From an uncultured Clostridia bacterium (lineage in GTDB: Bacteria; Bacillota; Clostridia; TANB77; CAG-508): DNA of 64,000 bases. The stretch covers positions 48,791-112,790 of the forward strand of contig CANQYM010000004.1 of assembly GCA_947628085.1 (NCBI GenBank). Reading direction: 5' to 3'. The notes beneath the pieces are model-generated. The model worked only from the letters and a program-made list of their open reading frames with translations, was not told the DNA's origin and did not search any database. The position numbers and the translations under genes are program-made. Every line of letters begins with the position of its first letter. The stretch's first letter is position 1. Shown piece by piece: positions 13,316 through 13,486 of the stretch.

Positions 13316-13486
13316 AATCTATTACAGTGCTTATATATTACTTTAACAGTGACTTGCTGTCGCAATCTTCTTCTAATTAGATAATATTTTAAATACTACT
13401 AAAGATTGCTCCAATCGCACTTCGCTTATGCTTCGTTTTCGCTCAAGCGTCACTTATAAAGTAATATATAAGCACTGTAATAGATT
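13316..13486 (+). repeat. IR-flanked structured intergenic element A (candidate ncRNA or MITE-like family)
   Basis: A perfect 29-bp inverted repeat (AATCTATTACAGTGCTTATATATTACTTT / AAAGTAATATATAAGCACTGTAATAGATT) encloses a GC-rich core. The core contains GTCGCAATCTTCTT...AAGATTGCTCCAATCGCACTTCGCTTATGCTTCG..TCGCTCAAGCG. This core is about 80% identical to the core at 39565-39701 in the opposite orientation. Confidence 0.6.

Follow-up and report, generated by a model that had tools for sequence, protein, structure and literature searches.

Short GC-rich islands that are closed by long inverted repeats and lie behind genes raise the question whether they are structured RNAs belonging to those genes or DNA repeats that have come to lie beside them. 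The question is posed here by a stretch of 64,000 nucleotides from an uncultured Clostridia bacterium (GenBank assembly GCA_947628085.1, contig CANQYM010000004.1, positions 48,791 to 112,790), referred to throughout as the window, in which three such intergenic elements, A, B and tentatively C, had been picked out. The initial annotation, made from the sequence alone, took them for one family and preferred an RNA, such as an element of the 3' untranslated region, over a MITE (miniature inverted-repeat transposable element). The present analysis showed that A and B belong to a family that has multiplied to about 47 intergenic copies in one species, leaving decayed, truncated and tandem derivatives, and that C is a distinct object. 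On balance it is probable that A and B represent a lineage-specific hairpin repeat of the MITE, REPIN or BOX-like kind, which is conserved from the inside out and whose arms are maintained by exchange at the DNA level.

No inverted repeats in the whole window, which has a GC content of 26%, are better than those of elements A and B. Element A (13315-13487) is closed by a repeat that is complementary at 29 of 29 positions (13316-13344 / 13458-13486), exactly as first described; when the 5-bp helix GTGAC/GTCAC is included, the repeat extends over 13315-13353 / 13449-13487 with 37 of 39 positions paired. Its RNA fold reached -64.8 kcal/mol (z = -12.2 against shuffles, single strand). Element B (39553-39714) has its centre, of 46% GC, on the minus strand and is closed by arms of 44 nt (39545-39588 / 39679-39722) that are 89% complementary, their tight part being 39553-39588 / 39679-39714; its fold had a z of -9.8 against shuffles, likewise for a single strand. 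The inverted repeat first annotated for B was real, but its coordinates were one base out of register, so that 12 of 24 positions paired as they stood. A lies 59 nt past the dpaB stop, namely that of the open reading frame (ORF) 13072-13257, in agreement with the initial annotation, and B lies 143 nt past the aspartokinase stop, close to the 150 nt estimated.

The centres of A and B are homologous once that of B is reverse-complemented. The sequence AAGATTGCTCCAATCGC occurs exactly in both cores, on opposite strands, with a chance expectation of 0.09 matches, and TGTCGCAATCTTCTT is common to both centres. The 34-nt block after AAGATTGCTCCAATCGC is identical at 31 positions, so that the homology claimed for it stood and its identity was higher than the roughly 80% first estimated. 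By contrast, GTGTCGCAATCTTCTT, which had been called identical, agrees at 15 of 16 positions, A starting with C.

An exact-pattern scan of 185,579 species genomes, with one genome per species, yielded 40 copies that were all located in a single metagenome-assembled genome (MAG), and one chance match elsewhere. This MAG, 'uncultured Clostridia bacterium Lapin-005__bin45' (GCA_947601495.1), derives from rabbit gut and is related to Ca. Scatovivens. With a profile built from the exact-pattern cores, 45-47 distinct copies were counted across 37 loci fetched from the MAG; the initial annotation had let its family stand or fall with further copies, of which about 47 were thus found. In the window the profile matched only A (74.7 bits) and B (103.8 bits), typical copies scoring about 115 bits. 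A is a decayed copy, the 3' part of its centre being degenerate with a GG deletion and with CTCAAGCG in place of CTTACGCG. The window represents a sister strain of the MAG (flanks 93-97% identical), and contigs identical to the window are present in the ENA sample ERZ27249512; in the nearest named relative, Candidatus Scatovivens, the aspartokinase is 88% identical. Metagenome and Logan contigs of these strains often end exactly inside or at element arms (L044, L045, L046, L055, L057, L062, L064, L065 and L067), indicating that the repeat breaks short-read assemblies and that copy numbers derived from MAGs are therefore lower bounds.

An alignment of 41 copies (alignment A3) defined a non-coding unit of about 170 nt with a centre of about 95 nt, the latter having 45-50% GC in a genome of 26% GC. 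The 5-bp helix P1, mostly GTGAC/GTCAC, is frequently accompanied by a T.T mismatch beside it. The centre then carries, in this order, CTTGGTGTCGC, the helix P2 (GCAATCTTC...GAAGATTGC) with an AT-rich loop of variable length, TCCA, the helix P3 (AUCG.CC ... GG.UUGGU, with two G.U pairs) and CGCTTACGC. Beyond P1 the AT-rich stem ends sharply after 29-35 bp (median about 31), and an inverted repeat of about 37 bp is present in each copy. Mean pairwise identity fell from 95-100% in the centre to 74% in P1, 65% in the inner arm, 50% in the middle arm and about 40% in the outer arm, which equals the value for unrelated flanks. A degenerate arm consensus, AATTCTTATAGTGCTTATATATAACTTTATTA, was common to about 16 of 39 copies, and the remaining arms were unrecognisable but paired; the initial statement that the terminal repeat differs in every copy therefore held in part. 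Consensus scans detected neither a promoter nor a terminator inside the centre, and a weak TTGGTG-17-TAAAAT motif, read from the sequence in many copies, stayed under the scan threshold. No consistent U-tract followed the stem (mean 3.5 T in the 10 nt past the right arm); this T count matches both the background and the number of A ahead of the left arm.

One diverged copy was found outside the MAG lineage in a scan of JGI metagenomes (L047:116-291). Its arms are quite different, and both its P1 (AATCC/GGATT) and its P2 (GCAATCTAC/GTAGATTGC) are preserved by compensated changes. This copy suggests that the core is more widely distributed. It is located 30 nt downstream of a gene for a large serine recombinase (L047:322-1948), which is split into two ORFs and has the domains Resolvase, Recombinase and Zn_ribbon_recom; the neighbour could mark the edge of an integrated element or be a coincidence. 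Matches of a 17-mer in IMG/VR were chance matches only, and blastn against phages and plasmids gave nothing relevant, on which grounds a phage origin was rejected. The idea that the arms are spacer-like guides was likewise rejected, as two unique 21-nt arm segments had no exact match in IMG/VR.

The feature that had suggested an RNA, a conserved core combined with differing but always paired outer stems, was borne out and proved to be accompanied by massive covariation. In the alignment 93.1% of the cells paired, compared with 76.4% in shuffles and 33-46% with the partners slid, and 298 cells were changed on both sides, compared with 81 +/- 7.5 in shuffles. Changes on both sides occurred in 31 of 47 pairs, all 30 arm and P1 pairs covaried, and every measure of covariation exceeded 500 of 500 shuffles as well as the slid controls. 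In the arms and P1 this covariation is of the Watson-Crick type only and is alike on both strands. In P1 at least nine pair combinations occurred, and its 205 cells included neither a broken pair nor a G.U; mismatches of the G.T and A.C type were equally frequent in the arms (23 each), and the plus and minus strands folded with -27.0 and -26.7 kcal/mol for the centre and with -61.0 and -61.5 kcal/mol for the whole element. The absence of G.U from P1, the equal numbers of mismatches and the equal folding of the strands give no sign of selection on the RNA of one strand. The same covariation would be expected of a DNA palindrome, and it fits the copying of one arm from the other. In REPINs, a class of DNA repeats, the two sides of the hairpin commonly show compensatory changes (PMC3116915).

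The arms probably stay complementary because one of them is copied from the other at the DNA level, either through recombination or gene conversion between the arms or through template switching during replication, and slow selection on an RNA would not be required. Such a process could also yield inversion of the centre and tandem duplications on the core-left side. The centre would be the cis-acting part, and its uniformity might reflect either the needs of a trans-acting enzyme that makes no target-site duplication or gene conversion between copies.

Related genomes showed the sites of A and B without the element. At locus A, between the dpaB-like gene and an acyl-ACP thioesterase gene, the MAG has the element in the same orientation as the window; two species, whose thioesterases are 85% and 82% identical, do not have it, one of them having nothing and the other an ordinary terminator hairpin. 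The end of the upstream gene and the TTGAAT-17-TATAAT promoter were kept in all genomes compared, and since the promoter is kept in sister species without the element, it is part of the host gene's own sequence rather than of the element. At locus B, between aspartokinase and yabP, a species with a 92% identical aspartokinase has only the terminator and a spacer of 60 nt. This canonical terminator stands between the gene and element B in all strains, B lying downstream of it. About 85 kb sampled from sister species contained no copy and no other inverted-repeat-closed GC-rich island. Between the two strains, the sequence adjoining the arms of A and B was far more diverged, by indels, than the promoter-proximal spacer, and in the MAG strain about 100 additional AT-rich bases separate the right arm of A from the thioesterase promoter (L061:3800-3990, compared with window 13488-13500).

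The two strains differed in the orientation of B. At this locus window and MAG are collinear in their flanks, whereas the element aligns in reverse. The centre was on the yabP strand in four contigs of the W type and on the other strand in four contigs of the M type and two of the M2 type. All of them contain the same copy of B, as they have in common the private P1 variant ATACC/GGTAT and the variant TTGTGTG. Between the two orientations, one substitution and a 2-nt loop indel distinguish the centres, and in the arms two pairs had changed on both sides, in addition to indels. Opposite orientations of one copy in two lineages of a species could be the mark of an invertible DNA switch (inverton), in which the arms are recombination sites and flipping of the centre alters a signal that acts on neighbouring genes according to its orientation. 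The placement of an asymmetric 95-nt segment between inverted repeats of about 37 bp, the conserved T.T mismatch beside P1 that travels with the centre, and the weak TTGGTG-17-TAAAAT motif would all suit such a switch. It is nevertheless very unlikely that the elements are invertons. Orientation followed the haplotype in all ten contigs, indicating a rare event and not demonstrating switching, and A had the same orientation in both strains; inside the centre there is no convincing promoter or terminator. No dedicated recombinase is located nearby, the only one of the window being an Xer-like recombinase 3 kb from A, which was rejected for this role because the same gene is found at the same place in element-free species. 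To our knowledge, a 95-bp invertible segment would be shorter than known invertons, and a single inversion over about 5% sequence divergence is explicable by ordinary recombination between inverted repeats.

Among the copies of the family, several derivatives could be observed. A 5'-truncated copy was found at L023, and L006b scored 60 bits; L006 and L015 are adjacent pairs, L039 has a half copy beside a full copy, L022 has an internal 19-nt duplication, and L024 is a triple tandem of the left arm plus most of the centre. The copies L017 and L029, at different loci, have the whole arm in common up to the same termini, indicating that a whole hairpin can be duplicated as a unit. All four combinations of the complex variant GCGAAAGC and the double variant C-G/A-T were found among the centres, which indicates exchange between copies. 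Strong tandem repeats (period of at least 15, score of at least 80) were concentrated at the elements: 16 of the 23 in 348 kb adjoined one, 12 on the core-left side and 3-4 on the right. Their units of 17-34 nt are different at every locus and are partial copies of the outer left arm, and a tandem repeat adjoins the core-left arm in about a quarter of the copies. The W and M2 types, with their opposite orientations of B, each have a tandem duplication on the core-left side.

A more specific form of DNA-level maintenance would make the element an 'inside-out' hairpin transposon or replicon, the centre of which, folded as single-stranded DNA or as a cruciform, is recognised by a nicking or recombining enzyme, one arm then being re-synthesised from the other by a hairpin transfer resembling terminal resolution. 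This mechanism would account for the Watson-Crick-only covariation of the arms, the fixed stem length, the flip of B, the core-left duplications and the lack of target-site duplications. We consider it improbable; if true, it would be a mode of maintenance and spread that has not been described for bacterial chromosomal repeats.

All copies were intergenic. Given relative to the element, the flanking genes of 39 copies were arranged ++ in 19 cases and -- in 6, divergently in 9 and convergently in 5, and there was no orientation bias with respect to local strand skew (26:22). As no gene has its 3' end at the nine copies between divergent genes, a position in a gene 3' region does not define the family. 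The claim that A and B stand in the same sense to the upstream gene did not survive the inversion of the B centre in the sister strain and the nearly random orientation overall.

Several findings weigh against a mobile DNA repeat. The two strains showed no difference in presence or absence within the 64-kb region of the window, so that mobility is deduced only from the lack of the element at the A and B sites of sister species, and this absence could in principle reflect loss. No consistent direct repeat or target-site duplication was present at the sharply defined stem ends. An all-versus-all comparison of ORFs in about 300 kb around the copies revealed no transposase, ABC ATPases being the sole multi-copy proteins. 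The arms are far less conserved than the centre (40-65% compared with 95-100%), which is the opposite of what is seen in terminal repeats recognised by a transposase and would be expected if a functional centre were under purifying selection. In an AT-rich genome, GC-rich islands are a classical hallmark of structural RNA, and on the plus strand P3 has two invariant G.U pairs and one C-G/A-U covariation. In tandem gene contexts the orientation is biased 19:6, and a crude scan found a separate terminator before the element in only about 5-6 of 24 copies with a co-oriented upstream gene; from the bias it follows that many copies are probably transcribed in one sense. Two further searches bear on the enzyme: copy-number screening of the 8-kb loci showed no IS200-like protein, although no domain scan of all ORFs was made, and the genes flanking element clusters were housekeeping genes.

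Much of this evidence would suit a multi-copy structured RNA, co-transcribed with the upstream gene, in which the GC-rich three-helix-junction centre is functional and the variable stem acts as a processing or closing helix, for example as an RNase III substrate as in rRNA precursors or as a protective or terminating hairpin at the 3' end. The core would be held constant across about 40 loci, the arms drifting yet staying paired, and the diverged copy L047 would retain its P1 and P2 for the same reason. In P3 the C-G/A-U covariation is 30:11 with no broken pair, and a U.G to U-A change was found in three copies, but the former may be a single event of one subfamily. The left arms begin 8-100 nt past stop codons, mostly with no other terminator, and some hairpin repeats are known to act on mRNA 3' ends (PMC3184786). 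A dedicated RNA is the main rival reading, but it is rather unlikely to be the basis of the family. The elements are confined to one species, and sister species lack them at the orthologous sites; nine copies are found in divergent promoter regions; and B follows a canonical terminator, its orientation being reversed in the sister strain. G.U pairs are not in excess, the two strands do not differ in folding energy, and the element contains neither a conserved promoter nor a U-tract terminator. The arms of A are perfect in both strains despite its decaying centre, except for one T.G in the MAG. The whole window had no Rfam 15 match at the gathering score; at E values up to 10, A and a consensus copy gave sub-threshold matches to generic hairpins of at most 21 bits, and ARAGORN found no likeness to tRNA or tmRNA. 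The initial conclusion that covariation points to an RNA of the 3' untranslated region and not to a mobile repeat is not supported, in view of the Watson-Crick-only covariation, the divergent sites, the one-species range and the decayed copies. For a hairpin repeat maintained as DNA, read-through from the neighbouring gene would probably turn the hairpin into a 3'-end structure, such as a termination, RNase III or stability site, and this effect on mRNA 3' ends is likely to be a by-product and not the reason for the family.

Element C is not a member of this family. Its inverted repeat of 19/20 exists (fold z = -6.4), and it lies 30 nt past the pncB stop, not 40 nt as first stated. The family profile gave nothing on C with nhmmer even at E = 1000 with filters off, and blastn over 810 kb of related sequence found no relative of C; on both grounds C was rejected as a remote member of the A/B family. 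The motifs that had tentatively joined it to A likewise failed: GCTTGAGCGA is common only to C and to the part of A that departs from the consensus, and CGATTCGCTTC occurs only in C. The convergent nadE-pncB spacers were compared in four sequences (window 3240-3337, L082:3925-4021, L085:3925-4190 and L081:3922-4164). In one sister species the same AT-rich arms (AAGTTATATTATATT / AATATAATATAACTT) enclose a loop of 12 nt and form a plain bidirectional terminator. In the window the 58-nt GC-rich insert occupies this loop, another species has, at the apex of a C-like insert, a second one of about 85 nt bounded by inverted repeats (GTAGAATTGGT...ACCAATTCTAC), and a 98%-identical strain has the nested insert of about 85 nt and a deletion of the left half of C. 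Neither of the two inserts at this locus matched Rfam or was repeated in the 810 kb. C is therefore a nested insertion into a terminator loop, a 'Russian-doll' hairpin distinct from the A/B family, and nothing else speaks directly for the rival idea of GC-rich sequences entering hairpins that were already present.

The C locus raises the possibility that in the A/B family, too, the mobile unit consists only of the centre and the inner arm and enters AT-rich palindromes already in place, such as terminators, at their loops, the outer arms being host hairpins. Consistent with this, similarity between copies over the outermost 10 nt of the arms does not exceed that of the flanks (39-41%), many copies occupy the position of a terminator directly past a stop codon, and A-runs and T-runs bracket some arms. 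This origin is decidedly improbable for A and B, as the empty A and B sites of sister species have no arm-related palindrome, the arm consensus extends to the terminus in about 16 of 39 copies, complete arms are common to L017 and L029 at different loci, the stem length is tight (29-35 bp), and C itself is single-copy and unrelated to the A/B core.

Table 1. Coordinates of the elements and of the features adjoining them (window positions unless a locus is named)
Feature	Position	Strand	Remarks
Element A, left arm	13315..13348	+	AT-rich; pairs with 13454-13487
Element A, centre	13349..13453	+	P1 GTGAC 13349-13353 / GTCAC 13449-13453
Element A, P2	GCAATCTT 13362-13369 / AAGATTGC 13402-13409	+	AT-rich loop enlarged
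Element A, right arm	13454..13487	+	
Promoter-like site of acyl-ACP thioesterase gene	13497..13525	+	TTGAAT, 17 nt, TGnTATAAT; just outside A
Element B, arm on yabP side (right arm in core orientation)	39553..39588	-	includes P1 strand ATACC 39584-39588
Element B, centre	39589..39678	-	near-consensus core, 103.8 bits
Element B, arm on aspartokinase side (left arm in core orientation)	39679..39714	-	includes P1 strand GGTAT 39679-39683
Tandem direct repeat, period 31 x 2.3	39699..39769	-	duplicates outer part of B core-left arm
Canonical intrinsic terminator of aspartokinase	39790..39823	-	AAGAGTTTAATT, loop, AATTAAACTCTT, T-run; read from sequence
Element C	3240..3337		19/20-bp AT-rich hairpin, the nadE-pncB bidirectional terminator, with 58-nt GC-rich loop insert
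Tandem repeat, period 40 x 2.3	3134..3238		adjoins C
Tandem repeats at elements	window 39699-39769; L009:6581-6692; L026:7356-7524; L033:1-100; L025:1633-1744		and others

Some further features of the window were observed. The dpaB-like flavoprotein gene upstream of A (12675-13257) consists of two overlapping ORFs in different frames, one of 146 aa (12675-13115) that covers positions 1-110 of 162 of the Pfam domain Flavoprotein and one of 61 aa (13072-13257) that is C-terminal-like. Gene calls show the same split (143-147 aa) in every relative down to 82% identity, with the downstream frame conserved, and this could be a conserved frameshift or a natural split; a sequencing error is unlikely. 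Near B, a single ORF of 205 aa (38518-39135) spans YabQ (128 aa) and DivIC (93 aa), which are separate genes in relatives, and one contig of the same species is annotated with a YabQ+DivIC product of 202 aa. A 1.1-kb AT-rich stretch without ORFs (31617-32735) contains several imperfect inverted repeats, among them 31982-32015 / 32137-32170 with the GC-rich ends CGTCTTAAAATCG / CGATTTTAAGCCG. At 57115-57298 a tandem repeat of period 36 with 5.1 copies (TRF score 154) was found with no element adjoining it.

A literature search found no description of a repeat of this kind in Clostridia. The nearest parallels are MITE-like palindromic intergenic repeats (ERIC, Correia/NEMIS, BOX, RUP and bcr1), some of which lie at gene 3' ends and fold as RNA (reviewed in PMC3184786). 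Like these, the A/B family is non-coding, 100-200 nt in size and present in tens to hundreds of intergenic copies, forms long stem-loops with inverted-repeat ends around a core, often by gene 3' ends, and differs sharply in abundance among related genomes. In contrast to them, it has no target-site duplication and no cognate insertion sequence was found, its terminal repeats are the least and its centre the most conserved part, and its centre has been flipped in situ between strains. The alternative of a MITE, as put forward initially, was accordingly right in so far as a dispersed short repeat is concerned, but not with respect to target-site duplications, which are absent, or to terminal repeats, which are only weakly shared.

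REPINs, which are doublets of REP sequences mobilised by RAYT proteins (PMC3116915), are likewise extragenic dispersed hairpins with compensatory changes that form clusters and tandems, and with their IS200/IS605-like chemistry no target-site duplication is expected. Their end 16-mers are invariant and their spacer varies, whereas the reverse holds here; no RAYT gene was seen in the sampled loci, and in the present case an AT-rich Firmicute contains a core that is GC-rich and not palindromic. With the SPRITE and terminator-like repeats of Streptococcus pneumoniae (PMC3184786) the family has in common a Firmicute host and a repeated hairpin at terminator sites, but it has no consistent U-tract and also occurs in divergent promoter regions. 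Because it has neither the target-site duplications of classical MITEs nor the conserved ends of REPINs, and its terminal repeats are only weakly shared, the family was assigned to none of the named families and is regarded as a new form within the known kind of bacterial interspersed hairpin repeats.

Two functional analogies, with no claim of membership, can be added. The terminal hairpins of parvoviruses and adeno-associated virus (AAV) have a long stem and an asymmetric centre in two orientations (flip/flop), one arm being copied from the other; they are the ends of linear viral genomes and are processed by an HUH nickase, whereas the hairpins described here are internal chromosomal sites, for which we know of no HUH-type enzyme. 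In the attC sites of integrons the structure of the folded strand is conserved rather than the sequence, together with unpaired bases of the stem; their conserved boxes lie at the outer ends around a variable centre, and the sites stand in cassette arrays, whereas the present family has a conserved centre and is dispersed among housekeeping genes.

Bacterial interspersed hairpin repeats are usually recognised by their ends. Here recognition is by the centre, and the ends are constrained only to pair, so that repeat finders and MITE definitions would miss or mis-file such a family. The family also illustrates that covariation around a conserved core does not prove an RNA, as arm copying in a palindrome gives the same signal without G.U intermediates or strand bias. 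Should the centre prove to be expressed as RNA, this would be an RNA family of unusually high copy number limited to one lineage. With about 50 loci and two strains differing by an inversion, the family offers a natural system for the maintenance of palindromes, for their inversion and for hairpin-associated tandem duplication.

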